DNA from: a virus
Taxonomy: Duplodnaviria; Caudoviricetes
DNA: 57,935 nucleotides
Strand: one strand, 5' to 3'
IMG/VR virus record: IMGVR_UViG_3300049038_000008
Location: 1 to 57,935 of that record
Every line of letters starts with the position of its first letter. Positions within the stretch are counted from its first letter, which is position 1. A program made the translations under genes and the position numbers. The notes under the pieces are model-generated. The model ran no database searches. It saw nothing but the letters and a program-made list of their open reading frames with translations, and was not told the origin of the DNA. Positions 2,093 through 44,829 of this stretch are shown one piece after another.

Positions 2093-3268
2093 TTATCCGT
2101 TTGAAGCTTTGTCCTTTTCATCCTCTCCGAAGTCCATTGTTAGTAGTTCGGTTGCCTCTTCCATCGTGTCGGCAGTCGGATGCGCGTAAATTAACAAGGT
2201 CGTTTTCTTACTGTGTCCGGTTATCGCCATCACCTGAGATAAGGGGAGCTTCTTATTCACAAGGTATGTTGTCGTGCTATGCCTGATGGTGTGAAAGACC
2301 GCGCCGCCTGTCTTTAACCCGTAATGGATGCCCACACGCTTGCAAGCGTTCCTGTAAGCGCGTCGAATCATTCTGCCAAAATCATTCACAACCTGAGACT
2401 CTGGCTTAAAGACATAGCGGCCCGGATTCTCTACGATTCGTCGTTTCAAAATCTCTGCCACATTGGAGGTGATCGGAATAACCTTTGGTCTATTCGTCTT
2501 GGCGTTCTTGATTGCGAGGTATCCATGTTTATAGCCGATGCCACGTTGAAAATGCACCTGCGATTTTTCGAGCAAGGCAAGCTCCGATATTCGCATCGTG
2601 GTTTCGATACCGACGATCACCACATCACGCGCTAAGGCTCTCCGCTGGCGTTCAGGGAGGTTTGAATCAGGCACGGGGTCTTCTAATGCCTTCACGACCT
2701 TCAATAAATCTTCACGGCTCAATACGACCTCACGACCTTGATGTTGTAGTGGCAATCTCTCATAGTCGGGTGGTTGCCAGTTGAAACCGGGGAAGAGTTT
2801 CGGCGCGGCTCTCAGGCAAGTCCGTATCATATCTAATTCTTTATTGATGGTGTGCGGATGAATGTCGGATTGCAGCCGGGTTGCCTGGTACTCAATAAAA
2901 TGGTTTTCGTTTAGTTTGCGGAGTTCCTTAGAATGAGAAACAGTCTTTAGCCGATTGATGTAGGTTTCAACCTCATTGATGCGCTTCTGGCTTAGTCCTC
3001 TTATGGTTGCTTTTCGCTTCCACGCAGACAACAGGGCATCTAAGGTGATGGCTTCATTCTCATAACCGAGTCGATTCGGGTTGCGCATCAACAATTTGAA
3101 TTTGGCTAGTTCATCTTCGGCTTTTTCTTTATTCTCCCACGTGGCCTTTTGATACTTCTTGCCTTCATATGTCCAACGATAGCCATAGCGAATCAGGCCG
3201 GTTTTCGTCTTGACCTTAATAATATTTGTGCCTTTGTAAACCTTGATGATTTTGACCGCCATAATCAA
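2093..3268 (-). CDS. int: Tyrosine recombinase (phage integrase)
   Basis: Catalytic set TTMRISEL (R), KNAKT (K), HTIRH, TGH, IYAH (Y); 391 aa with arm-binding-like N-terminus. Confidence 0.93.
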   Translation of the reverse strand: MIMAVKIIKVYKGTNIIKVKTKTGLIRYGYRWTYEGKKYQKATWENKEKAEDELAKFKLLMRNPNRLGYENEAITLDALLSAWKRKATIRGLSQKRINEVETYINRLKTVSHSKELRKLNENHFIEYQATRLQSDIHPHTINKELDMIRTCLRAAPKLFPGFNWQPPDYERLPLQHQGREVVLSREDLLKVVKALEDPVPDSNLPERQRRALARDVVIVGIETTMRISELALLEKSQVHFQRGIGYKHGYLAIKNAKTNRPKVIPITSNVAEILKRRIVENPGRYVFKPESQVVNDFGRMIRRAYRNACKRVGIHYGLKTGGAVFHTIRHSTTTYLVNKKLPLSQVMAITGHSKKTTLLIYAHPTADTMEEATELLTMDFGEDEKDKASNG

Positions 3269-3756
3269 ACCCTGTAGTTACGATAAATTTGCAGTCTGAA
3301 ATCTACGATCTGTTTATTAGGGTAAGATTCGAGCAATTCAACGACAGATAGATTTTCAATTAATATCGTAGGAATCAGAATACAGGCAGAGACTAATGAT
3401 GCTTGGTGTTCTGCCTTGCTTATGAATACCTGCGGTTTGTTGAAAAATTGCATTTCGGTTATTTCCGGTTGGTGCAACCAGAAATGTGTCAATTCGTGAA
3501 ATTCAACAAAGGTCTTGAAACATCCTGTTAATGAGCTTTTGATATAAATAATATCTTTGTCCTTACGGCGAAAATATACACCGTCCCACTTTCGAGATTC
3601 CCGTATAACGATTATATTTTCTTGGTCACAGACATATTCAAAATCATCACTGCCCATCGGGATTTCGTGGAGATCATAATTGAGCCACTTCAGGCGACTC
3701 TTGACCGCTGTTAAATAGTAAGGTTCATTTCTTTTTTCTCCTGCGTTCAATCTCAT
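3265..3756 (-). CDS. ImmA/IrrE-family metallo-endopeptidase (antirepressor protease)
   Basis: HELTH (HExxH) plus AEHQAS...ACILIP; located between repressor and integrase. Confidence 0.85.
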   Translation of the reverse strand: MRLNAGEKRNEPYYLTAVKSRLKWLNYDLHEIPMGSDDFEYVCDQENIIVIRESRKWDGVYFRRKDKDIIYIKSSLTGCFKTFVEFHELTHFWLHQPEITEMQFFNKPQVFISKAEHQASLVSACILIPTILIENLSVVELLESYPNKQIVDFRLQIYRNYRV

Positions 3757-4099
3757 TATCCACGACCTCCAGCAGCAATTTTAATTCCGACTTGTCCTCC
3801 TCTGACAACTCATTGTAGTTGTAGAATAACGCCCCCATCTCGGAATCGTTCATTTTCGGTGAGCTTCCTATAATCAATCGAAATATGCTCTCTGGATTCT
3901 CCCCTAGTCCTTTGGCTAACGCCTCTATTGTTTTTGCTGTTAGGTTTTCGAGTCCATAATTCACAATCTTATTTATCATCCCGGCAGCCACCTCGCCATC
4001 GCTTAGACGTTCCACTTCTCTAAAGGTTAGCCCTTTTTCTTTTAGAATCCTTCTTACGTAATCAGCTAATGACTCACGGGTTTCTTTTTTCGGTGCCAT
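3725..4099 (-). CDS. XRE-family HTH immunity repressor (ImmR/CI-like)
   Basis: LADYVRRILKEKGLTFREVE...TIEALAKGLG HTH; divergent from the Cro-like gene; start moved to ATG 4099 because the upstream region holds operator repeats. Confidence 0.85.
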   Translation of the reverse strand: MAPKKETRESLADYVRRILKEKGLTFREVERLSDGEVAAGMINKIVNYGLENLTAKTIEALAKGLGENPESIFRLIIGSSPKMNDSEMGALFYNYNELSEEDKSELKLLLEVVDNEIERRRKKK

Positions 4100-4188
4100 A
4101 ACCGCGCTTTTCCCCTCATATCTTAAAGTATCCACTTCAGATACCAACCTACTAAACGGGCTGAAACCCATGCTACTTATCTCAAATC

Positions 4189-4290
4189 CTAAAGTATTCA
4201 AACTCTCTTCCTCCATGCGCTTAAAATCTTTTAGTACGCAACTTGAAAACTATTCTTGACACGAGCCTGCATCCTATGGTATTCAATAAA
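4189..4290 (+). promoter_or_regulatory. Immunity control region: rightward promoter (PR-like) and operators
   Basis: TTGACA(4256-4261)-N18-TATTCA(4280-4285); repeated AGTATTCA-like motifs; blocks shared with 1709-1736 and 1895-1910. Confidence 0.7.
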
Positions 4291-4296
4291 TATCTT

Positions 4297-4635
4297 ATGA
4301 GACACAAAACTAAGAAACCTAAAAAGCCTCAAATCGCGCCTCTGTTCAGGGCTGACCTTCTTGACGCAATTCGTGATGTTCGCGGATTCACAAGAGAGCA
4401 ACTGGCAGAACGCGCAGGTATTTCAAGATTCGGGCTTTTCAAGATCGAAAGAGGCGGGGATGTGAGAGCCTCTACATTAAAGAAGATTGCGGATGCTTTG
4501 AATGTTGATATGAAAATCTTTTTTGATTTCAACCTGCAACTGGATGTGCAGGCGATTAAAGACGGACTGACTACCGAGAGCGAAATATTTGTTACCAGTG
4601 CAATTGAAAAGCAAGTTGATGCGCAAGCCGCATAG
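4297..4635 (+). CDS. Cro-like XRE HTH regulator
   Basis: IRDVRGFTREQLAERAGISRFGLFKIERG...TLKKIADALNV; start at ATG 4297, just after the promoter. Confidence 0.85.
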   Translation: MRHKTKKPKKPQIAPLFRADLLDAIRDVRGFTREQLAERAGISRFGLFKIERGGDVRASTLKKIADALNVDMKIFFDFNLQLDVQAIKDGLTTESEIFVTSAIEKQVDAQAA

Positions 4636-4729
4636 TCGGCCATTTGTCTGCCTAGAGGTGGCCCCAAAGATCGCATAAGGGGCATAGGGCGACGATAGGG
4701 AAACTTTCTGACGGGCTTGAAAGATTTTT

Positions 4730-5524
4730 ATGAAAAAAGTTTGCGGGAAAAATTGGGAGATGTGGTTGGCGGATTGTACGGATGTTTTGCCGATGCTTGA
4801 GAACGTAGATGCTGTTGTCTCTGATGTGCCTTATGGAATGAAGGCAGACTTTGAGCGCAAGGGCTTACGAACGAGCCGATTACTTGGCGGTTACGACTTT
4901 AAGCAAGAATACCGATTCACAACCATTGCTGGTGATGACGAGACATTCAAACCCGCACACCTTTTAGGTTTCGACTACGTGGCCTTGTTTGGGGCTAATC
5001 ATTTCTCACATCTCTTACCTGCAGAAGTTCCCGGCAAGCAATATAAGTGGCTATTTTGGGATAAGCGATGCGGTACGCCATCAGATGACAATTCGGACGG
5101 TGAATTAATTTGGACAAATCAGTACGGCGCTCTTAGAACCCACAGGCAGAAATGGCGTGGCATTGTTCGTGAAGGCGAAGAAAACCTTTCAATTCAAGGC
5201 GCGAAACTTCATCCAGCACAAAAGCCTGTGGCGCTGATGAAATGGATTCTCGAGCAAATCAAAGTGCCATTAGATTCAACTGTGCTTGACCCCTACTGCG
5301 GCGTAGCCTCCACAGGCGTTGCCTGCCTCAGAACAGGCCGAAAGTTCATCGGCATAGAAAAGGATGAAAATTACTTTGCGATTGCTGTAGAGCGATTACA
5401 GCGCGAAGAAGAGAAACAAGAATCATCACTCTTTGCCAGCATTGAAACGGTCAAATATTCGCACTATGCCGAAAGCAACCTGAATTTATTTACTCAGGAG
5501 TTTGGCTTGGAGGTCGTTGAATGA
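4730..5524 (+). CDS. DNA N6-adenine/N4-cytosine methyltransferase (beta class)
   Basis: Motif IV SDVPY before HPAQKP and motif I VLDPYCGVASTG; FIGIEKD. Confidence 0.88.
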   Translation: MKKVCGKNWEMWLADCTDVLPMLENVDAVVSDVPYGMKADFERKGLRTSRLLGGYDFKQEYRFTTIAGDDETFKPAHLLGFDYVALFGANHFSHLLPAEVPGKQYKWLFWDKRCGTPSDDNSDGELIWTNQYGALRTHRQKWRGIVREGEENLSIQGAKLHPAQKPVALMKWILEQIKVPLDSTVLDPYCGVASTGVACLRTGRKFIGIEKDENYFAIAVERLQREEEKQESSLFASIETVKYSHYAESNLNLFTQEFGLEVVE

Positions 5525-5730
5525 CCGACACTCCCCGCACCCGACAACTCATCAAAGGCGGCGAGAAAGAAAAGCTGATGAGTCAGAGAAAGGCACACCT
5601 GTTGAATTTGTTGCGATTGGATGCGCCGGATTTTCTCATTGCTACACACTGTTACCTGTTGTTGCGTGGGTATTGCGATGAGGACAGCGGGAAGGTGAAG
5701 AGATTGATTGAGGAGAAGATGGGTCAATGA
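5521..5730 (+). CDS. Hypothetical protein
   Basis: GGAGG RBS; ATGA-coupled on both sides. Confidence 0.6.
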   Translation: MTDTPRTRQLIKGGEKEKLMSQRKAHLLNLLRLDAPDFLIATHCYLLLRGYCDEDSGKVKRLIEEKMGQ

Positions 5731-5900
5731 ACCGAGCCAAGAGCCAACGCAAGAAAGCCTACAACGCCGCGCATCGTGAAGAGGTGAAGGCGTGGACCAA
5801 GAAGGCGACACAGGCGGCTCAGAAGCTCCCCACAGAGACACGCAGCATTGCCGGTCTGAGAGCGTGGAAAACCAGACGAGCGAAAGAGGAAACATTATGA
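5727..5900 (+). CDS. Small basic hypothetical protein, 57 aa
   Basis: Manual translation MNRAKSQRKKAYNAAHREEVKAW...; ATGA overlaps at both ends. Confidence 0.55.
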   Translation: MNRAKSQRKKAYNAAHREEVKAWTKKATQAAQKLPTETRSIAGLRAWKTRRAKEETL

Positions 5901-6070
5901 GTACCCTGCTCCACCGCCTTCCCCAAGACGACGACCAGCCACCTTATTGGCAAGAGCGGGAATTGAACATCGAACCCCTCGACCCGACCCTTTGGCTAGG
6001 GTCCACGGTGACAACGGGGAAGATCGTCGCGGGGTTGGCGCTAGCGGCATTTCTCTGGGCTTCCCTATGA
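5897..6070 (+). CDS. Small protein with C-terminal TM segment
   Basis: MSTLLHRLP...KIVAGLALAAFLWASL; GAGG RBS. Confidence 0.5.
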   Translation: MSTLLHRLPQDDDQPPYWQERELNIEPLDPTLWLGSTVTTGKIVAGLALAAFLWASL

Positions 6071-6159
6071 ACCACTACTCCCGCCCCCTGTGGACGCTCA
6101 TATTGGCATATGGCGCGATTGTGGGTGGGTTGGTGATAACGCACTGGATAATGAGATGA
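6067..6159 (+). CDS. 30 aa membrane peptide
   Basis: MNHYSRPLWTLILAYGAIVGGLVITHWIMR; ATGA-coupled. Confidence 0.45.
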   Translation: MNHYSRPLWTLILAYGAIVGGLVITHWIMR

Positions 6160-6341
6160 GCATCTTTAGACCCACAGAGGAACAGCGGCAGAAATGGGAA
6201 CGGGTATTGAAGCTGCAAGAAAGCGGATTCAGCCGAAAGAAAATCGCCGTCATCTTAAATTTGAAGATGCACTCTGTTGACAAGTTTATTGCCAGAGCCA
6301 AACGGCAACGCGAGATTGATACGTCTTGGAAAAGGCGATGA
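6156..6341 (+). CDS. Small HTH protein (sigma70 region 4/LuxR-like)
   Basis: VLKLQESGFSRKKIAVILNLKMHSVDKFIARA pattern. Confidence 0.6.
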   Translation: MSIFRPTEEQRQKWERVLKLQESGFSRKKIAVILNLKMHSVDKFIARAKRQREIDTSWKRR

Positions 6342-6683
6342 TGTTTGAAAAAGCAAAGCGTGAGATTCCCGCACCGATGGCATGAACACCCGTCAGTCCT
6401 TACGCTTTGCAGATTTTTGTGAAGGCATTTCAGGCGGCGTTGGTATATCGGCTAAAACCTGAGCCTGGTGCCTTCACAGACGATAGATATTTGAAATGTG
6501 CTGGCGTGGCGAAACGGTAAACGCATTTTGGCTGCTACATAAAGATGATTGAATCCGTCCCGCGCTCTGATAGTCCTTTAATGGAACATCGCGGTGTAGC
6601 TTACAGGTTCAAATCCTGTCGCCAGCATTTTGCCACTCAACCGTACCCAAAGCAGGGGCCGAGTGTTAGGGGTGGGTGGCGAA
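6340..6683 (+). ncRNA. Structured RNA array 1a: four stem-closed modules
   Basis: Closing stems 6353/6410 GCAAAGCGT:ACGCTTTGC; 6418/6478 TGTGAAGGCA:TGCCTTCACA; 6500/6626 GCTGGCG:CGCCAGC; 6631/6681 TGCCACTCA:TGGGTGGCG; boxA-like TTTGAAA motifs at 6340 and 6486. Confidence 0.65.
6500..6627 (+). ncRNA. tRNA-like RNA (Leu-type body, no canonical anticodon arm, very large variable arm)
   Basis: 7-bp acceptor stem; UG linker; D arm GCG-AAACGGTAAA-CGC; T arm ACAGG-TTCAAAT-CCTGT; discriminator A; 128 nt; no encoded CCA. Confidence 0.75.
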
Positions 6684-6700
6684 CGATAAAGCGGAAGCGA

Positions 6701-6904
6701 ATGAAGAAATTTCAAGTCAGTTACAAAAACCTAAATAGCGAAGTCTTCACGGGCTATTACGACGTGCAGGCAAGAACCGACAGCTTGGCAATTGGCAGGG
6801 CTAAAAACCGCTGGATTGAAGATTGGAATTTATCATTCCCGTATAACCCGAATGGTGAAAGCGAAGTATCAAAGGTCGTTTTCGTCATCACGAATAAAGG
6901 TTAA
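6701..6904 (+). CDS. Hypothetical protein embedded in the RNA array
   Basis: MKKFQVSYKNL...; the longer 6545 start runs through the structured RNAs and is unlikely. Confidence 0.55.
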   Translation: MKKFQVSYKNLNSEVFTGYYDVQARTDSLAIGRAKNRWIEDWNLSFPYNPNGESEVSKVVFVITNKG

Positions 6905-6905
6905 T

Positions 6906-7121
6906 GCTATTTGAAAAAGTTTGGCTGCCGCATTGAGGGCACGGGATAAGACGGTCAATTGACTGGCTTCTGCGCCGGATTTGTAATCTGGGTCACGCCG
7001 ATACCGTGAGCGACCTGAACGGCAGCCAATACCCCTTGCGCTCTTCACCCGTTTGCGAGTCTGAAAGTCCAAAGCGAAAGGTGAAATTTCCCGCATAAAT
7101 CTCCAGGGGGTGGAGGCGCAG
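6906..7121 (+). ncRNA. Structured RNA array 1b: two multibranched modules
   Basis: boxA-like GCTATTTGAAAA at 6906; TTGGCTGCCG(6921):CGGCAGCCAA(7029) enclosing CACGG:CCGTG and an anticodon-like hairpin; TTGCGC(7036):GCGCAG(7121) enclosing TTCACC:GGTGAA and CTCCA:TGGAG. Confidence 0.6.
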
Positions 7122-7135
7122 AGATTAGAGAAAAG

Positions 7136-7756
7136 GTGAATATGGAATATCACAAAATTGAAACGCTTTATGAGCGTGATGAAAAATTCAAGGTTCAACC
7201 AGGGGTGTTTAAGAATCGCACCTACACGCTACTTAAAGAGTGGTGGTTTACCGAAAAGATTGACGGCACCAACATTCGCTGTAACTGGAATGCCGCCGAT
7301 AAGAAAGTGGCATTTGGTGGGCGAACCGACAACGCACAAATCCACGCTGACCTAATTAGATGGCTCTATGAAAACATCACAGTGGAGAAAATGACAGCCC
7401 TTTTCCCTGAAACAAATATTGTCCTCTACGGTGAAGGCTACGGCGCAGGGATTCAAAAAGGTGGACTCTATAGCCCTGTTAAAAAGTTCATTCTCTTTGA
7501 TGTGCTGGCAGATTCAAGATGGTGGCTCAATTGGGAGAACACTGTTGACGTTGCGAATAAATTGGACATTGAAGCCGTTCCATTTATCGACGTGATGACG
7601 CTTGAGGATGCCACGGAGTTTGTACGGCGTGGGTTCTATTCAAAATTAGGTGACGGCACAATGAAGGCTGAAGGTGTGGTTGGTAGACCAGCAGAAACGC
7701 TATTCGATAAGAAAGGTAGTCGGTTAATTCTCAAACTGAAGACAAAGGATTTTTAG
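7136..7756 (+). CDS. RNA ligase, Rnl2-family adenylyltransferase domain
   Basis: YHKI, motif I TEKIDGTN, LYGEGYG, FILFDV, AEGVVGRP, ILKLK. Confidence 0.85.
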   Translation: MNMEYHKIETLYERDEKFKVQPGVFKNRTYTLLKEWWFTEKIDGTNIRCNWNAADKKVAFGGRTDNAQIHADLIRWLYENITVEKMTALFPETNIVLYGEGYGAGIQKGGLYSPVKKFILFDVLADSRWWLNWENTVDVANKLDIEAVPFIDVMTLEDATEFVRRGFYSKLGDGTMKAEGVVGRPAETLFDKKGSRLILKLKTKDF

Positions 7757-7808
7757 CCTATGCCCGACCCTTTATCCCTCATCCCCTCGGTCCGCCGCTG
7801 GAGAAGGC

Positions 7809-7826
7809 AAACCCTACGTAGGGTTT
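7809..7826. repeat. Perfect 18-bp palindrome (possible operator)
   Basis: AAACCCTACGTAGGGTTT, intergenic, 13 bp before ATG 7840. Confidence 0.5.
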
Positions 7827-7839
7827 TAGAGAAAAGCTT

Positions 7840-8034
7840 ATGACAGAAACTACTCAAACTGAAAAAGGCCGCTGGTGGGGTAAGGACTTCTGCCCGCATC
7901 CCGGTCAGCCCTGCATAGATGGCTGCTATTACTGTGGGAGAAGTGTCGGCTCGATTTCGGGCGACCATAACCACACGAAAACATCGTTGCAGAATGAGCC
8001 GGGTGAATACAGTTGCGTTTGTGAGGGGTGCTAA
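7840..8034 (+). CDS. Small Cys-rich hypothetical protein
   Basis: CYYCG and CVCEGC motifs. Confidence 0.55.
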   Translation: MTETTQTEKGRWWGKDFCPHPGQPCIDGCYYCGRSVGSISGDHNHTKTSLQNEPGEYSCVCEGC

Positions 8035-8240
8035 TGGACGTTATCGACAGAGGCATTGCCGCCATACGAAGGCAGAGGCAAAAGAGGTTTAGGTTGGTGT
8101 TGGCGATGCTGTTGGAAGAGGAAACTCCACAGACCTGTACTTGTTCGTTCGCCCCGTTGCATTTGGCGGTTTGCAAAGTTAGACCGAAGTTTGGAATGAA
8201 GAAATGATACAATCGCGCAAAACTTTTGGAGATGAAATAA

Positions 8241-8468
8241 ATGAAAACCTATAAATTGCGCGTTGTTGAACTGGCGAAAGAGCACGGTCTTGAAAACGCT
8301 AATCAGTTAATGAAAGCTGCCGATCTGAATAAAAAACCGGCATACGAAATATGGAACGGAGTATCAAAAAGCCTAACTCTGGAAACTATCGGAAAACTTT
8401 GCACCGTGTTCGATTGTGAGCCCGGAGATTTGTATATTGAAGTGAAAAACAAGAGAAAAAAGGGTTGA
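8241..8468 (+). CDS. Cro/C1-type HTH regulator (HTH_26-like)
   Basis: SLTLETIGKLCTVFDCEPGDL signature; GGAG RBS. Confidence 0.85.
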   Translation: MKTYKLRVVELAKEHGLENANQLMKAADLNKKPAYEIWNGVSKSLTLETIGKLCTVFDCEPGDLYIEVKNKRKKG

Positions 8469-8663
8469 AATACTGGGTCAACTACGGTAGACTTTCAATT
8501 GACAATTTGATGTAGATTTTGCCCCGCGCCATCTAGCGTGGAAACTTTCTGGCACGGGGTTGCTTTGAACAAGAAACCTTTGTTGGTTTTTGTTATCGGC
8601 AAGGCGAAGATTACCCACCTTTCCTGACAAAAATCAACGTAAACCGAAAACTTTTTAACCCAA

Positions 8664-9113
8664 ATGAAAGGAAATGACATGAACCTTAAACAAATGTTCC
8701 CTGGAAAATATCTTGGTGCCATCGACCTCGACAGCGATATTGATGTGACCATTATCAACATCAGCGAAACCGAAGTAACGAATGAAGGACAAAAAGAAAT
8801 CAAACCGATAATCATGTTCAAAGAGCTGGACAAGCCACTGATCTTGAACAAAACCAACGCAAATAAAATTGCTGAACTTTTACGATCTGATGAAACCGAC
8901 GACTGGATTGGTAAAAGAGTTACGCTCGGAGTTTCGACAGTGGAATCGTTTGGGAAATCAACCGATGCGGTAAGAGTCAGGCCGAAACTTCCACAACAAC
9001 GGCAAGCACAAGGTGCAGCGGCTAGACCAAGTACAGGTCAAGCTTATGGCAATCCCAGACCCCAGCAACGCCAGGACGTTGAAGAAGTTTATGAAGATGA
9101 GCCGCCGTTTTAA
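8664..9113 (+). CDS. Phage ssDNA-binding-like protein
   Basis: KYLGAIDL...ILNKTNA...DWIGKRVTL pattern; Q-rich linker; acidic SSB-like tail EDEPPF. Confidence 0.6.
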   Translation: MKGNDMNLKQMFPGKYLGAIDLDSDIDVTIINISETEVTNEGQKEIKPIIMFKELDKPLILNKTNANKIAELLRSDETDDWIGKRVTLGVSTVESFGKSTDAVRVRPKLPQQRQAQGAAARPSTGQAYGNPRPQQRQDVEEVYEDEPPF

Positions 9114-9125
9114 GGAGCGATTAAT

Positions 9126-9509
9126 TTGGCTTTAACGGGTAACAACATCGGGGGACGGCTGGTTATAAATTCTGGCCGTCACTCTTATAACAAATACGGA
9201 GCGGTTAAAACTACCGTTGACGGCATCCGCTTCGACTCACGCCGCGAAGCTGAAAGATACATAGACCTAAAGTATTTAGTTGGTCTGGGTGAAATTACCG
9301 ATCTGAAACTCCAGGTGGAGTTTGAGGTTATCCCGGCAATGGAAATCTGTGGACGGAAATATAGGCCAACGATCTACAGAGCGGATTTTACTTACTACGA
9401 CAACGGGAAATACATCGTGGAAGATTGTAAAGGAATGCGCACTAAGGAATATGCAATCAAACGCAAACTGATGAAACAAGTGCATGGAATCGAAGTGAAG
9501 GAATCATAA
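9126..9509 (+). CDS. DUF1064-family PD-(D/E)XK nuclease/resolvase
   Basis: NKYGAVKTTVDGIRFDSRREA...YRADFTY...VEDCKG...YAIKRKLM. Confidence 0.88.
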   Translation: MALTGNNIGGRLVINSGRHSYNKYGAVKTTVDGIRFDSRREAERYIDLKYLVGLGEITDLKLQVEFEVIPAMEICGRKYRPTIYRADFTYYDNGKYIVEDCKGMRTKEYAIKRKLMKQVHGIEVKES

Positions 9510-9934: not shown

Positions 9935-10798
9935 GTGGCAAATGTAAGAAGGAAATCAGGGAAGTTTTTTTCTATCAGTCGAGCATTGGGGCAGGATGAA
10001 ACCTTATCGGCTGAAGCTGTGGGCGTAATGGCATATTTACTCAGCAAACCGGATGATTGGGAAGCGCAATTGACCGACATTGAAAGACGGTTCAAGATCG
10101 GCAGAGAAAAAAGGCAAAGGATAGTCCGAGAGCTTGAAGATGCGGGGTACATGGAGCGCATTGAAACCCGCGAAAACGGCAAATTCGATTATACGATTAT
10201 CGTACACGAAACCCCTTTGCCGTCACATAAACGCACCAAGGAAACGACTAGAGCCACAACTGAAAAACCGCAAAACCAAGAAGAAAATGAGCCGTCTGCG
10301 GATGAACCGTCAACGGCAAACCCGTCAACGGTTAAACCGTCAACGGTAAACCCGTCTACTTATATATATACAGATAAACAAGAAACAGATATACAGAAGA
10401 CTTTATCTGAAGATAAAGGGAGCGATTCGCTCCACGCCAAAAAAGAATCTGCCAAAACCTCACATAAAGACGTGAGGGCGAATCATGCCGCAATTACCGC
10501 TGTTAGAAAATTTTTACCCGATAACAAATACCCCAACAAATTAACCTGGGATGGGATTATTGAGAGTCTTGGCGAGAATCCCGACATCGGCAAACTAGAA
10601 TATTGCGCTAAAGCCTGGGCAACGATTTCAAAAAATATGTACAACCTGACCTGGGTTTTGGAATGGTATCAAAACGGTGTACCTGATCGAGTGAAGGCGA
10701 ATCTTAAACCACCCCCACAAGCCAATAATTCAAGTTTTGGTGTTATCCCCGGCACGAATGTTTATTACCGTCGCAGAGCAACGGAGGTTAATCAGTGA
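9935..10798 (+). CDS. Replication initiator protein (N-terminal winged HTH, O-like)
   Basis: LSAEAVGVMAYLLSKPDDW...ELEDAGY pattern; internal iterons. Confidence 0.8.
   Translation: MANVRRKSGKFFSISRALGQDETLSAEAVGVMAYLLSKPDDWEAQLTDIERRFKIGREKRQRIVRELEDAGYMERIETRENGKFDYTIIVHETPLPSHKRTKETTRATTEKPQNQEENEPSADEPSTANPSTVKPSTVNPSTYIYTDKQETDIQKTLSEDKGSDSLHAKKESAKTSHKDVRANHAAITAVRKFLPDNKYPNKLTWDGIIESLGENPDIGKLEYCAKAWATISKNMYNLTWVLEWYQNGVPDRVKANLKPPPQANNSSFGVIPGTNVYYRRRATEVNQ
10292..10370 (+). repeat. Putative replication origin: five 15-bp iterons plus AT tract
   Basis: CCGTC(A/T)... units at 10292, 10307, 10322, 10337, 10352 (core CCGTCAACGG), followed by TATATATATA at 10361-10370. Confidence 0.7.
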
Positions 10799-11649
10799 AA
10801 ACCGACTTGGTTAATATTTATCTTGCTGGCAAAGTCAACGGCAAGAAAGTCGAACTCTCCCAAAAGGTAACTGAGAGTGTTGGCCGGAAATCAATCAAAT
10901 GGTTGCGGTCTGACGGGAAAAATCACTCTGAGCATAGTTGGGGGTTTGCTTCATACGCCTATAACAGTTCCTCGCTTCGAGACTGGTTAGAAGAGAGTTT
11001 TATTAGCCGGTTAGCGGTGTCTGATTTTTTGTTGGGCTATGTCGAAACCCCTGATTCGTTCGGTACGATTGCAGAAATCGCTTATGCTTCATCACGCGGC
11101 AAGCATTCATACCTTTTGATTCAAGATTGTAACTCACCGGAATCGAGTTGTAGTTGCGGTCACGGTTGCGGCGACTGTGGTTTTCCTAATCCCCTTTATG
11201 ATGCGTATTGGTTTGTTTCTCATTTCCCGAATGTGACCGCGATTCAGGTCAGTTCTTTTGATCGTGCGGTTGAGAAGGCTATCCAGATTTGCCGGATGGA
11301 TTCCCCGATTGAGCATAAGCTTTTCCAGTCTCTTTGTTGCCGTCACTATGACAATTTTCAGACTCAATTCAAAATTGGTCAGTATCGGGTAGATTTCGCT
11401 TACGAATATCCCAAGATTGCCATTGAAGTTGACGGCCACGAATACCACTCAACCAAAGAACAACGCGGCAGGGATGCCCAAAGGGATAGGTTTATTCAAG
11501 CCGAGGGTTGGCGTGTACTTCGCTACACCGGCACTGAGGTTTTTAATAATCCTGATAAGTGTGCCAGTGAAATAAATTCTATTGTGCAGAATTTTTACAG
11601 GTCTAAACCTGAAACTCCGTTAGTAAATTTCTTTGGAGCAAGTCAATGA
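10795..11649 (+). CDS. Fusion of nucleoside 2-deoxyribosyltransferase-like domain and DUF559 (Vsr-like) endonuclease
   Basis: N-terminal IYLAG...SDFLL...GTIAEIAYA; C-terminal SPIE...YRVDF...IAIEVDGHEYH...DAQRDRF...GWRVLRYTG. Confidence 0.75.
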   Translation: MKTDLVNIYLAGKVNGKKVELSQKVTESVGRKSIKWLRSDGKNHSEHSWGFASYAYNSSSLRDWLEESFISRLAVSDFLLGYVETPDSFGTIAEIAYASSRGKHSYLLIQDCNSPESSCSCGHGCGDCGFPNPLYDAYWFVSHFPNVTAIQVSSFDRAVEKAIQICRMDSPIEHKLFQSLCCRHYDNFQTQFKIGQYRVDFAYEYPKIAIEVDGHEYHSTKEQRGRDAQRDRFIQAEGWRVLRYTGTEVFNNPDKCASEINSIVQNFYRSKPETPLVNFFGASQ

Positions 11650-14186: not shown

Positions 14187-14384
14187 ATGGCTATAAAACG
14201 CAATGCGCAAGTTTATAAAGTGAAGGCAAAAATTCAACGTGATGGAATTGAGGATTACTGGCTTAGAGTCGGAACAGCCGCAGAGTGTGAAGGCGGGAAA
14301 ATAATTATTACGCTTGATGCGCTTCCATTGCATTCAAAAGGCGTATTGATGCTTTTCCCTAAAGATGCAGAAGGGGAAGTTTAG
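14187..14384 (+). CDS. Conserved small phage protein
   Basis: YWLRVGTA...ITLDALP pattern; AGGTG RBS. Confidence 0.6.
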   Translation: MAIKRNAQVYKVKAKIQRDGIEDYWLRVGTAAECEGGKIIITLDALPLHSKGVLMLFPKDAEGEV

Positions 14385-14436
14385 TACTGAAGTAGCCACC
14401 CACCCCGGCAGCGGGCGGCGAGAGAGAGGGAGAAAG

Positions 14437-15510
14437 TTGATAAACTTTGACTTAGTACAAAAAGAAATAGAAACCGGCTACATCGCGGTACAACGCCACC
14501 CGACTGAGAATCTGCGAATCCTGAACTACACGGCAAAGGCGCAGTATGACCAACGATGGACTGATGAGGTGAAAATATGTCGTGGTCTTATCGTTGACGG
14601 TGATAATCAAATCGTGGCGCGACCCTTTGCAAAGTTTTTCAACGCTGACCAACACCAACGCTCTGACCTCGTTTGGTCAAAGCCCTTCACTGTGACCGAA
14701 AAGCTAGACGGCTCATTAGGGATACTCTACAAGACGGCGAACGGGTTGTTCATTGCGACGCGGGGTAGTTTTACGTCCGAGCAAGCAAACAGAGCAACCG
14801 AAATTCTGCACGACAGATACCTTGATATTGTGGTGCCTGATGGACTCACGCCGCTATTTGAAATCATCTATCCATCTAATCGAGTCGTGGTTGACTACGG
14901 CGACCTGAGCGATTTGATTTTACTGACGGTGATTGATAATCAGACCGGCGCTGATGCAGCCTGTAGCCCACAGGAAGCGGCGAAGCTCATCAATTGGTCT
15001 GGCAGGGTGGCGCAATCGTATCCGATTGAATGCAAGCCAACTGATGTCATTGCGGCGCTCGGTTTGCCGCAGGATGGAAGCGTGGAAGGAATCGTTTTGC
15101 GGTTCGATTACCCCAAAGGTCAACACACGCGCATTAAGGTTAAGACCGACGAATACAAGCGCCTTCACAAACTAATCACGGGCGTCAATGCGCGGCATAT
15201 CTGGGAAGCGTTGCGCGATGGCTTACCGCTGGAGCCGCTTATTGAGCGTGTGCCGGATGAGTATTATCAATGGGTGAAGGCGACAGAGAAAGAATTGCGG
15301 ACGGCCTATGCCGAAATCGAAATGCTTTGCCAGTCTGATTACAAAGGACTGAGAAAAGCGATTGCGCAATACTTTCAAACCTGTGCTCATCCAGGCGTTT
15401 TGTTTTCTATGCTTGATGGCAAGGATTACAGCAACCATATTTGGAAGCAAATCAGACCACAGGCTGCACGGGCTTTTAGGTGTGATGGCGAAAGCGAGTC
15501 CACCCCATGA
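14437..15510 (+). CDS. T4 RnlA (Rnl1)-family RNA ligase
   Basis: ILNY, CRGLI, ARPFAKFFN, motif I EKLDGSL, ATRGSF, FEII, EGIV, IKVK; TTG start after GGGAG. Confidence 0.9.
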   Translation: MINFDLVQKEIETGYIAVQRHPTENLRILNYTAKAQYDQRWTDEVKICRGLIVDGDNQIVARPFAKFFNADQHQRSDLVWSKPFTVTEKLDGSLGILYKTANGLFIATRGSFTSEQANRATEILHDRYLDIVVPDGLTPLFEIIYPSNRVVVDYGDLSDLILLTVIDNQTGADAACSPQEAAKLINWSGRVAQSYPIECKPTDVIAALGLPQDGSVEGIVLRFDYPKGQHTRIKVKTDEYKRLHKLITGVNARHIWEALRDGLPLEPLIERVPDEYYQWVKATEKELRTAYAEIEMLCQSDYKGLRKAIAQYFQTCAHPGVLFSMLDGKDYSNHIWKQIRPQAARAFRCDGESESTP

Positions 15511-23376: not shown

Positions 23377-23808
23377 ATGACCCGCTCCGACGCAATAGCC
23401 GAACTACAGAAGTTTACGAAGCTTGCTACGGTTGCCCAATGCGACACGGGCGATTCTCGCGCTGGTTTTGGTTCGGCTATTGATTCGGCACTAAGGGAGA
23501 TGGGAACGGATGAAGGGGATTTGGCAACCGCAGAGGTTGCGGCGTCAGATGTGCCAGCATTCTTAGCTCTTTGTGATTACTACGCATTGAAGATGCTCAA
23601 GGTTTATCTAGCTTCTGACGCCGTGGATTATTCGGTAACGGCGAATGATGGTACGGTGAACGAGAAGCGTAGTCAGACCATAACAGCGGTTAATGCCCTG
23701 TTAGCCGACGCCAAAGAAGAGGTCAGGCGATTGGGCTACCTTGATTCTGATTTTGAGATTGTTTCATTCAACACTAATTGGATTGAACCAACGAGTGCGG
23801 AAATATGA
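23377..23808 (+). CDS. Head-tail adaptor (putative)
   Basis: Size, helical composition and position after the capsid genes. Confidence 0.6.
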   Translation: MTRSDAIAELQKFTKLATVAQCDTGDSRAGFGSAIDSALREMGTDEGDLATAEVAASDVPAFLALCDYYALKMLKVYLASDAVDYSVTANDGTVNEKRSQTITAVNALLADAKEEVRRLGYLDSDFEIVSFNTNWIEPTSAEI

Positions 23809-29168: not shown

Positions 29169-29285
29169 CATGAGCAACCAACACCGCAATAGCCGCGTTG
29201 ATTTTGCTTCAACATTTGATTTTCTGCTTTCCGCAAAAGGCTTAACAGCCGTCGCCGCAAGCAGCCAGCTTGTGGAGAAAATCAA

Positions 29286-30314
29286 ATGGCAGTCAACTCA
29301 GTGGTCAACAAACGCGCGAAATTTGGCGCACAGGCAGCATTCGGCACGGGCGGCACACTAGATACCATCCTAAATGGTTTTGGCTTTTCACGCATCAAGC
29401 CGCTCGTTCGGGGTGGTGAGATGTACACCAATATGGGGGAACAGTTTGCCTCCATTGCGGTCCCTCCGGGTAAGCAGGCATCAGAGTTAACCTGTGCCGG
29501 TAAACTTACCTACAACACCATCGTTTATCCGTTCATCACGATGTTCGGCAATGTCAGCGTTGCGGCTGACGGCACGAATGGCAAAGAACGCGACTTCTAC
29601 CTTGCTAATGGCGTGACCATCACGAAGCAAGCGGCAACTATTGAGATTGGTGATGCGAATAGGGCGCAAAAGGTGATTGATGCTTTTGGCCGTGCACTCA
29701 CCATCAACCTCTCGGATGCTGCCCAAGGTTTCGAGATGCCGTTTTTTGCTGGCAAGCGGCAAGATGACACCACGCCAACCACGGCAGGGCTAACCAGCAT
29801 CACCGGCAAGATCGTCAACCCGGCAGACTTCGATGTCTATGTTGCATCTACGCAGGCAGGGCTAGACACGGCTGAAACCACGGGCGCGGCTGCACGGTTC
29901 GCATTGCCCCTGGCAGCGGATATAACCATTCCTGACATTTCGAGCTTGCTCTATCGGATGAACTCGTCTGATACCAGCTACCACGCACGCCCTGACATTG
30001 CGGCACAGGCACAACTCAAATTTAAGTGCGGTGATGATGATGCGGACTTTGCGAACTTCCTCACCTACCTTGACAACGGCACATCGGTGTTTTTCCGCTT
30101 CGTTGCCCTTGGTGATGTGATTGCCGGAATGACGCCAAGCCAGGAACGGTTCGCCATTGATTGCGCCTGTAAATTGGTGACGCCTGAAGAGCCGGATGAG
30201 CAGGATGGCGCGGCAACTAATTCATTTACTTTCGATTTATTCCACGATCCGACATGGGGCAAGGTCATCAATTTCAACATCATCAATGATGTGGCTGCGA
30301 TTACATGGTCGTAA
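29286..30314 (+). CDS. Major tail tube protein
   Basis: 342 aa, beta-rich; position between tail terminator and chaperone; GGAG RBS. Confidence 0.75.
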   Translation: MAVNSVVNKRAKFGAQAAFGTGGTLDTILNGFGFSRIKPLVRGGEMYTNMGEQFASIAVPPGKQASELTCAGKLTYNTIVYPFITMFGNVSVAADGTNGKERDFYLANGVTITKQAATIEIGDANRAQKVIDAFGRALTINLSDAAQGFEMPFFAGKRQDDTTPTTAGLTSITGKIVNPADFDVYVASTQAGLDTAETTGAAARFALPLAADITIPDISSLLYRMNSSDTSYHARPDIAAQAQLKFKCGDDDADFANFLTYLDNGTSVFFRFVALGDVIAGMTPSQERFAIDCACKLVTPEEPDEQDGAATNSFTFDLFHDPTWGKVINFNIINDVAAITWS

Positions 30315-44571: not shown

Positions 44572-44829
44572 CTCTTTGACAATTTCGGCAACCACCTGTC
44601 CTCCGAAGTAAGAGATTAATGCAGCCTATGGGCTTGGTTGCCGAAACTTTTTCGTGAATGAGCAACCGCTGCTTTGACGGTTATCAAGGCCGCCTCTTAT
44701 TAAGAGGGCTAAGTGAAATTAGACACGAATTGCGCTCATTCACGATTGATGTTGGCCGGGAGTTTGTCACAGGGGCGACGATGCTCTCGGCCTTCACCCC
44801 GCCTGATGCCGGATTAAATTCAATGTCAA
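44571..44829 (+). ncRNA. Structured RNA array 2: boxA plus three stem-closed modules
   Basis: GCTCTTTGACAAT at 44571; stems TTTCGGCAACCA:TGGTTGCCGAAA (44583-44646), TCGTGAATGAGC:GCTCATTCACGA (44652-44745), TTGATGTTG:CAATGTCAA (44746-44829). Confidence 0.7.

Follow-up and report, generated by a model that had tools for sequence, protein, structure and literature searches.

A probable remodelled tRNA array beside an RNA ligase gene in a temperate soil phage

The locus and its structured modules

IMG/VR virus record IMGVR_UViG_3300049038_000008 comprises 57,935 bases of an uncultured soil phage, with an estimated completeness of 54%, and was analysed over its full length (the window herein). The record carries a lysogeny module consisting of an integrase (2093–3268), an ImmA/IrrE-type peptidase and helix-turn-helix (HTH) regulators. 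Downstream of this module runs a long plus-strand early/replication operon with a DNA methylase, a DUF1064 protein and a Toprim primase-helicase, and inside that operon, between genes for a 61-amino-acid HTH protein and a 204-amino-acid RNA ligase, lies an array of stem-closed modules (m1 to m6) at 6340–7121. An earlier note on this DNA had proposed that these modules form a new system of phage small RNAs (sRNAs) tied to the ligase. On balance, we favour reading the stretch as a phage tRNA array that has been remodelled next to an RNA-repair ligase; the earlier observation is partly confirmed and the interpretation placed on it partly supported. The elements of the array are as follows, with lengths in nucleotides (nt) or base pairs (bp).

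6338–6353, plus strand: leader 1, ATGATGTTTGAAAAAG, overlapping the stop codon of the HTH gene; its TTTGAAA ends 3 nt before m1
6353–6410, plus strand: m1, an irregular hairpin of 58 nt, closed by a 12-bp stem that includes 9 perfect pairs
6418–6478, plus strand: m2, a 61-nt near-continuous hairpin (11+5+2+5 bp), the 'B' hairpin after m1
6486–6496, plus strand: leader 2, GATATTTGAAA, ending 4 nt before the tRNA-like m3
6500–6627, plus strand: m3, a 128-nt tRNA-Ser(GCU)-derived gene (Rfam RF00005; ARAGORN -i)
6631–6681, plus strand: m4, a 51-nt hairpin that folds no better than shuffles
6904–6919, plus strand: leader 3, ATGCTATTTGAAAAAG, overlapping the stop codon of open reading frame (ORF) 67; its TTTGAAA ends 4–5 nt before m5
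6921–7029, plus strand: m5, a 109-nt cloverleaf-like RNA
7036–7121, plus strand: m6, an 86-nt fold no better than shuffles

Six stem-closed modules had been claimed and were found at these coordinates, with perfect Watson–Crick closing helices in m1 (9 bp, 6353–6361/6402–6410), m2 (10 bp, 6418–6427/6469–6478) and m5 (10 bp, 6921–6930/7020–7029), but they do not amount to six equivalent units. Counting perfect helices of at least 9 bp whose arms are 20–120 nt apart gives 32 in the window versus 19.6 ± 4.6 in 30 Markov simulations, and 3 of the 32 sit in a 677-nt part of the array, where about 0.2–0.4 would be expected. When each module was compared with 200 dinucleotide shuffles, folding was clearly beyond chance for three of the six, namely m1 (z = -3.66; 1/200 shuffles as good), m2 (z = -4.60; 0/200) and m5 (z = -2.88; 1/200), but not for m3 (z = -1.89; 10/200), m4 (z = -1.22; 21/200) or m6 (z = -1.90; 11/200). 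As the module borders were picked by eye at complementary ends, low folding energies are favoured in this comparison. Further stem-closed elements, with perfect 12–13-bp helices, were seen elsewhere in the window at 44583–44646, 44652–44745, 29213–29288 and 23393–23482; the one at 44583–44646 is followed by CTTTTT and has a terminator-like look, and the one at 44652–44745 overlaps the start of the ORF at 44658.

The modules differ in character. Modules 1 and 2 each form a long, nearly coaxial hairpin of about 19–23 bp. Module 5 has a 10-bp closing stem with 2+3 extra pairs, followed by three inner hairpins in tRNA order. The middle one of the three, CCGGA-UUUGUAA-UCUGG, is a canonical anticodon arm of the tRNA-Thr(UGU) type, but the loops at the D and T positions are not tRNA-like. 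This 17-mer has four exact matches in IMG/VR; one is the anticodon arm of a real tRNA-Thr(tgt) in locus L158, and the other three are not called as tRNAs. As the 3' end of m4 and its flank (about 6672–6690) resemble the start of the acceptor/D-arm region of m3, m4 looks like a truncated 5' remnant of a tRNA gene. Positions 7059–7096 of m6 (approximate limits) are a degenerate copy of a leader plus the 5' half of m1. These partial duplicates are seldom equalled by chance: shuffles scored as high in 0 of 300 trials for the 26-nt alignment of m1 with m6, and in 2 of 300 for the 20-nt local alignment between m3 (5' part) and m4 (3' end). The TCCCGC hexamer that had been singled out as recurring is not enriched, with 24 occurrences in the window versus 29.3 expected, and its recurrence in m1 and m6 is part of the 26-nt partial duplication. 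A search of IMG/VR for the motif shared by m1 and m6 gave one match, apparently within a reading frame as judged by eye, which was taken as chance. The modules are not repeats of one another, and the earlier distinction from CRISPR arrays stands: no repeat family spans them, and a lone match to a CRISPR direct-repeat family (E = 8.9) is noise.

Also as previously described, TTTGAAA lies upstream of m1, m3 and m5, at 6344, 6490 and 6910, with gaps to the module of 3, 4 and 4–5 nt, respectively. Leaders 1 and 3 form a 16-nt repeat in which 14 positions (88%) are alike, a score reached by 1 of 300 shuffles. The claim that a boxA leads the array was not borne out: the closest match to the boxA consensus in the vicinity of the array, TGCTATTTGAAAA at 6905, has 3 mismatches in 13 positions, and the window has 25 such matches versus 20.2 expected. 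No promoter-like sites were found within 6340–7140, and promoter-like and terminator-like counts across 3500–9500 are at or below shuffle level; the one terminator-like match within 6340–7140 (6963–6978) lies inside m5, with counts equal to those of shuffles. Three other identities were considered and dropped. Leaders 1 and 3 contain an ATG and could have been the starts of leader peptides (15 and 10 codons), but in the ligase relative L155, described below, the motif precedes tRNAs without an ATG. Intrinsic terminators do not describe the modules, none of which has a U-tract directly behind its stem, and an attP core was set aside with the integrase 3 kb away.

A tRNA-Ser-derived gene and the tRNA array of the closest relative

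Searching the whole window against Rfam returned a single family, tRNA (RF00005), at 6500–6627, with 42.1 bits versus a gathering score of 29. Modules 1, 2, 5 and 6 match no Rfam family. Module 3 has intact acceptor, D and T arms, the anticodon loop CUGCUAC and discriminator A, with no CCA encoded, and between the anticodon loop and the T arm it carries an insertion of 40–56 nt (about 56 nt before the T arm by Rfam). ARAGORN with default settings found 0 genes in the window, while with the -i option it called m3 as tRNA-Ser(gct) with a 39-nt intron. The site of the insertion is ambiguous, lying after anticodon-loop position 38 according to ARAGORN or in the variable region according to Rfam. 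Since 519 of the 943 ARAGORN-positive deletions in an excision scan give Ser(gct), the scan does not single out one intron. Whichever reading is taken, the anticodon stem is weak, with at most three A-U pairs, one G.U pair and one mismatch, and it stays weak after any excision; m3 lacks the regular 5-bp anticodon stem, standard length and default ARAGORN call of a canonical decoding tRNA. Positions 6602–6623, which span the T arm and the first part of the 3' acceptor strand, are identical at 22 of 22 positions to a tRNA-Ser(gct) of L155, and the anticodon loop is also identical. On these sequence grounds, we identify m3 as a tRNA-Ser-derived gene. Its T arm plus acceptor pattern had 0 matches in IMG/VR, no insertion-free allele was found, and a search of the metagenome-assembled genome (MAG) of L155 gave only the same L155 contig and unrelated tRNA arms.

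Within m3, GCUACA (the anticodon and the next three bases, 6532–6537) is fully complementary to UGUAGC at the 3' end of the insertion (6596–6601), which contains the serine codon AGC. The minimum-energy fold of m3 uses this helix, in which the anticodon would be masked; the complementarity could be chance (roughly 0.1).

The 19-nt D-arm word of m3 occurs in 79 viral IMG/VR loci (L015–L093), 21 of which have elongated tRNA-like genes of 96–143 nt, for example L019 (3290–3414), L039 (7214–7350), L067 (12578–12721), L093 (2680–2797) and L026 (5846–5946). In these genes the acceptor, D and T arms are normal and the middle is expanded. ARAGORN missed most of them and, with -i, gave inconsistent calls and anticodons; in Rfam, six (seven with the 92-nt L025) score as tRNA at 33–58 bits, and L031 and L036 fall below the gathering score. 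Where the surroundings were scanned (e.g. L015, L026 and L093), the elongated genes lie among ordinary tRNA genes. The same D arm is also found in 85-nt class II tRNAs with a long variable arm, whose anticodon loop CUGUUUA contains GUU (Asn); these occur in 40 loci as 13 sequence variants (e.g. L090, L087, L084 and L078), and their combination of a Leu/Ser-type body with an Asn anticodon is an unusual pairing.

To place the array among related loci, 76 ligase loci were assembled, of which 13 came from IMG/VR, 61 from metagenomes (several being the same contigs as IMG/VR entries) and 2 from genomes. The closest ligase found, with 72% identity, is that of L155, a contig of 5.5 kb that is filed with an Acidobacteriota MAG and in which the ligase gene lies inside an array of 19 tRNAs, 10 just upstream and 9 downstream. 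Three of the five plus-strand TTTGAAA sites of L155 end 3, 4 and 5 nt before a tRNA, and each of these three tRNAs is followed by a 56–98-nt spacer that folds as a hairpin (z = -1.99, -4.72 and -2.30), whereas 13 of the 18 tRNA–tRNA spacers in the contig are only 4–26 nt long. Since this leader spacing and the order of tRNA and hairpin spacer are matched in the window, the window repeats one plan three times: a TTTGAAA leader, an 'A' RNA and a 'B' hairpin, giving the pairs (m1, m2), (m3, m4) and (m5, m6). The analogy with tRNA operons drawn in the earlier note thus leads in the right direction, with m3 derived from a tRNA, a true tRNA array at this position in L155 and the same leader distance of 3–5 nt. 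Several tandem tRNAs were not found in the window, which holds one tRNA-like gene versus the 19 tRNAs at the homologous position of L155. In L155, about 2335–2412, a degenerate tRNA-like element that ARAGORN misses lies in the 185-nt spacer between tRNA-Arg and tRNA-Leu; it has an acceptor stem, a Leu-type D arm and a T arm, with no anticodon arm.

Outside L155, four loci (L002, L003, L136 and L153; 4 of 74 scanned) have one tRNA within about 25 nt of the ligase gene. The window's DNA upstream of the ligase was conserved in 0 of the 76 ligase loci, and a conserved partnership between sRNA array and ligase is thus not apparent. No match was obtained for 6000–8000 by blastn against GenBank phages, and 6340–7140 gave only tRNA-arm matches against the 13 + 61 + 2 ligase loci and the 79 D-arm loci. 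As no homologues of m1, m2, m5 and m6 were found in IMG/VR, the ligase loci or GenBank phages, these modules offer no covariation. A scan for gaps between naive ORFs upstream of ligase genes was defeated by spurious antisense ORFs, which fill such gaps even in the window. Of 401 genomes sampled from the phylum to which L155's MAG belongs, one has the ligase, and that one is the L155 contig itself.

Ligases, small protein genes and cassette exchange

The protein genes in and around the array, together with a second ligase gene about 7 kb downstream of the first, are listed below.

6156–6341, plus strand: small HTH protein gene, 61 amino acids from ATG 6156, ending just before leader 1
6701–6904, plus strand: ORF67, a probable small protein gene of 67 amino acids between m4 and m5, judged from codon usage
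7142–7756, plus strand: RNA ligase, 204 amino acids, adenylyltransferase domain only (Pfam PF09414, RNA_ligase, 72.4 bits)
14365–15510, plus strand: second RNA ligase, T4 Rnl1 type, 381 amino acids (Pfam PF09511, RNA_lig_T4_1, 60.1 bits)

Alignment with homologues places the start of the 204-amino-acid ligase at ATG 7142, 20 nt after m6 rather than the 14 nt previously given. The columns of its KxDG, EG and KxK motifs are invariant in 19 homologues. As a sequence search of the PDB returned nothing at E < 0.8, a fold search was needed. An AlphaFold2 model (predicted local distance difference test score 86) found T4 Rnl2 (2hvr and 1s68) as the best Foldseek matches, with template-modelling scores of 0.71–0.73 and E = 1e-8; this set includes the isolated T4 Rnl2 adenylyltransferase domain, and the next match is Naegleria NgrRnl, a nick-sealing ligase. 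The model thus assigns the protein a nick-sealing-type Rnl2/Rnl5 fold. In its adenylyltransferase domain, with ligase motifs I, III, IIIa, IV and V as well as an Rnl2-like fold, it corresponds to the T4 Rnl2 family. The label 'Rnl2-type' is therefore apt for the adenylyltransferase-domain fold but not for the full-length family: against TIGR02307 (Rnl2) the ligase scores 30.6 bits versus a cut-off of 197.15, covering profile positions 21–220 of 326, and it has neither the C-terminal domain nor the equivalog score of full-length T4 Rnl2. Kinase/phosphatase partners (PF13671 and PF08645) were not found in the 54%-complete record, nor were TROVE/Ro (PF05731) and RtcB genes. A protein with a DUF559/MTES_1575 endonuclease-like domain is encoded in the replication module at 10795–11649 (plus strand).

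The 61-amino-acid product of the HTH gene matches PHROG 3855 (HTH DNA-binding protein, E = 4.9e-5); its Pfam HTH matches are weak and below cut-offs, and protein searches returned no relatives. ORF67 has no Pfam, NCBIfam or PHROG match and no IMG/VR relative, and its codon score of 0.26 per codon equals the in-frame mean of the phage's long genes (0.26 ± 0.09). It is thus a probable protein gene that interrupts the array between m4 and m5, and the tandem series is not continuous as had been supposed. An 11-nt ribosome-site context, TTAGAGAAAAG, occurs at 7125–7135 and 7826–7836, each time just after a hairpin, and precedes the ligase gene and the next gene alike, which suggests shared cassette junctions.

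The region is mosaic. One contig from a soil metagenome retains 6429–6689 (2 differences) and 7036–7956 (0 differences), with 6690–7035, which comprises ORF67 plus m5, swapped for 328 other letters. In another metagenome contig, 6138–6402, comprising the HTH gene and most of m1, is swapped for 414 other letters. Two of the junctions, 6689/6690 and 7035/7036, coincide exactly with module borders, and the third, 6402/6403, falls inside the 3' strand of the m1 closing stem. Single-nucleotide polymorphisms (SNPs) were also found in the stems: 6356 A>G and 6402 A>G in m1, in a metagenome contig, each change an A-U pair to G.U in plus-strand RNA, and 6422 A>G in m2, seen in two runs, does the same. 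All three listed in-stem SNPs are thus compatible with pairing in plus-strand RNA, a small but consistent hint of constraint at the RNA level.

Readings of the locus and comparison with known systems

With tRNA maturation and T4-type tRNA repair as the models for its later steps, we propose that the array is what heavy remodelling through duplication, decay and cassette exchange has made of a temperate soil phage's tRNA-gene region. It would consist of three units built to one plan, each with a TTTGAAA leader, a structured A RNA and a B hairpin. In the A slots, m1 would be a plain hairpin, m3 a gene derived from tRNA-Ser(GCU) with a big insertion, and m5 a cloverleaf in which a tRNA-Thr-like anticodon arm is kept. 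The units would be transcribed on the plus strand together with the early genes, and host tRNA-processing enzymes would probably excise the A RNAs, with RNase P acting at the 5' side and RNase Z or E at the 3' side, and perhaps RNase III at the B hairpins. The leader distance common to L155 and the window, the tRNA origin of m3 and the array in L155 make such excision plausible. The 204-amino-acid nick-sealing ligase and the Rnl1-type ligase would then most likely reseal tRNAs or tRNA-like RNAs broken by host nucleases.

Several observations weigh against this reading. Only m3 scores as a tRNA: m1, m2, m4, m5 and m6 had no tRNA match in Rfam at E ≤ 10, and for m1, m2, m5 and m6 even lax filters gave no similarity to tRNA or any other family. 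Module 3 itself may be non-decoding, given its weak anticodon stem and its rejection by ARAGORN without the intron option, and the perfect 10-bp stems of m2 and m5 are not expected from simple decay. Only 5 of the 76 ligase loci have tRNAs according to ARAGORN, ORFs abut the ligase gene in most of the other loci inspected (L002–L014), and the unit plan has its parallel in one relative only, the 5.5-kb contig L155. Folding gives no strand preference, the minus-strand z-scores being about equal to those of the plus strand. The SNP sample consists of three sites in low-depth contigs, with four further differences in the same 199-nt contig unlisted, and no RNA run is among the sequencing runs that contain the sequence.

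The readings of the locus overlap. The hairpins might instead punctuate messenger RNAs, acting as processing or stability elements between early cistrons, with RNase III-type or RNase P-type cuts leaving protective 5' and 3' stems and m3 being one more cut site; they would also be recombination hot spots at which small genes are swapped, as in the promoter-early stem-loop (PeSL) cassettes of T4-type phages. Several features fit this account. The HTH gene and ORF67 each end in a stop codon that overlaps a leader (1 and 3, respectively), m1 and m2 form long, nearly coaxial hairpins, the TTAGAGAAAAG context precedes both the ligase gene and the next gene, and a gene is swapped as a block with the module that follows it, with two junctions at module borders and one in the m1 stem; PeSLs are described as mediators of modular shuffling (PMC2839356). 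The array nevertheless has no promoter-like site, promoter- and terminator-like counts around it do not exceed those of shuffles, no U-tract directly follows a module stem, and in L155 the same leader precedes true tRNAs and not protein genes. We regard punctuation as unlikely, and it overlaps with the tRNA-array reading without excluding it.

A dedicated array of functional phage sRNAs (decoys, antisense or anti-defence RNAs), cut from a single precursor, with the neighbouring ligase maintaining or circularising them, was the original proposal. It draws on the stability of m1, m2 and m5 far beyond that of shuffles, the retention of pairing by the stem SNPs, the presence of m1 and m5 in tRNA slots behind a tRNA-type leader, the canonical anticodon loops that m3 and m5 keep in non-canonical bodies, and the two RNA ligases of the phage. 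As two modules are no better than shuffles and look like partial duplicates, and a probable protein gene interrupts the series, the picture of six equivalent sRNAs fails. Homologues of m1, m2, m5 and m6 were not found in IMG/VR, the ligase loci or GenBank phages, and there is hence no covariation; m4 and m6 have the look of debris, conserved partnership of the array with the ligase is not seen, a boxA is lacking, and nothing points to circles, with no RNA run among those that contain the sequence. We therefore hold a dedicated sRNA array to be quite unlikely. The opposite extreme, that all modules except m3 are recombination leftovers and fortuitous inverted repeats with no RNA role, accords with the partial copies of neighbours carried by m4 and m6, which fold no better than shuffles, with the lack of homologues and with the mosaic region. 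It is at odds with three perfect 9–10-bp helices where fewer than one is expected, folding z-scores down to -4.6, pairing-compatible changes at all three listed stem SNPs and conserved leader spacing, and we judge it very unlikely.

Phage tRNA clusters with repair ligases are now seen as counter-defence against host tRNA-cutting nucleases. A speculative extension, which we would not expect to hold, is that m1, m3 and m5 are non-decoding tRNA mimics released by RNase P that serve as decoys or sponges for such host defence nucleases. In this scheme, taken as a whole, m3 and m5 would display intact Ser(GCU) and Thr(UGU) anticodon loops on bodies unusable for translation, the Rnl2-like nick-sealing and Rnl1-like loop-sealing ligases would reseal the mimics or host tRNAs, and the units would be swappable cassettes, so that strains could trade decoy repertoires.

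Under the remodelled-tRNA-array reading, the locus is a tRNA cluster caught in the middle of remodelling, with an inflated serine tRNA, other stable folds in tRNA slots behind the same leader, and gene-plus-hairpin blocks that vary between closely related sequences from different soil samples. Should the non-tRNA folds turn out to be processed RNAs, the locus would illustrate a route by which new phage small RNAs arise from tRNA arrays, and m3 would join the few phage tRNA genes reported to bear insertions; should they be no more than processing or recombination hairpins, the locus would be an ordinary accessory region. A keyword search of an open-access literature subset found no description of non-tRNA folds in leader-defined tRNA slots.

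Several known systems resemble parts of the locus. Bacterial and phage Y RNAs (YrlA), found with Ro60 and RtcB, are likewise tRNA-mimicking, long-stem RNAs arrayed beside an RNA ligase gene, but there was no Rfam YrlA match at E ≤ 10, and the TROVE/Ro and RtcB genes that go with them were not found in the record. The P1/P7 C4 and P4 CI RNAs are phage regulatory RNAs processed by RNase P. As in those RNAs, the closing stems join the 5' and 3' ends and could present a substrate resembling a tRNA acceptor, as the earlier note proposed; unlike them, the modules all lack a 3' CCA, have no identified antisense target and imply no immunity function. T4 RNAC and RNAD (the species 1 and 2 stable RNAs) come from genes that accompany that phage's tRNA cluster. 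The modules resemble them by description, as small stable phage RNAs, with no sequence or Rfam link found, and one source describes the function of RNAC and RNAD as not yet known (PMC9697503).

PeSL cassettes are small accessory genes flanked by a motif plus stem-loop and exchanged at these elements (PMC2839356). Gene exchange of this kind was found here, in the replacement of blocks 6138–6402 and 6690–7035 with junctions at or near module borders. Unlike PeSLs, the modules have no sigma-70-like promoter or terminator signature, and their motif also precedes the true tRNAs of L155. A closer parallel to m3 is offered by the insertion-bearing ('enigmatic intron') tRNA genes of Lak megaphages, of which the authors who described them knew no earlier report (PMC6784885). 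Both m3 and the Lak genes, as presented there, are over-long, escape detection under bacterial settings and are picked up once an intron is permitted (PMC6784885). Module 3 differs from them in its ambiguous insertion site, the lack of a found insertion-free allele and an anticodon stem that is weak after any excision.

The nearest comparison for the locus as a whole is with the tRNA arrays and repair ligases of phages. Such pairings are classic, as in the T4 tRNA cluster with Rnl1 and Pnk and in the arrays of large phages. The present locus departs from them in having one tRNA-scoring module, with a large insertion, and two tRNA slots that hold non-tRNA folds. Its adjacent ligase also differs from T4-type repair in being a 204-amino-acid, domain-only protein, and an end-healing kinase/phosphatase was not found in the 54%-complete record. 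What the locus shares with these arrays is a tandem series of stem-closed RNAs on the same strand, probably released from a precursor, with an RNA ligase gene beside or inside it, and its nearest relative L155, with 19 tRNAs around the ligase, is a plain example of the classic form. The locus is therefore most likely an unusual form of a known arrangement, and not a new small-RNA system.

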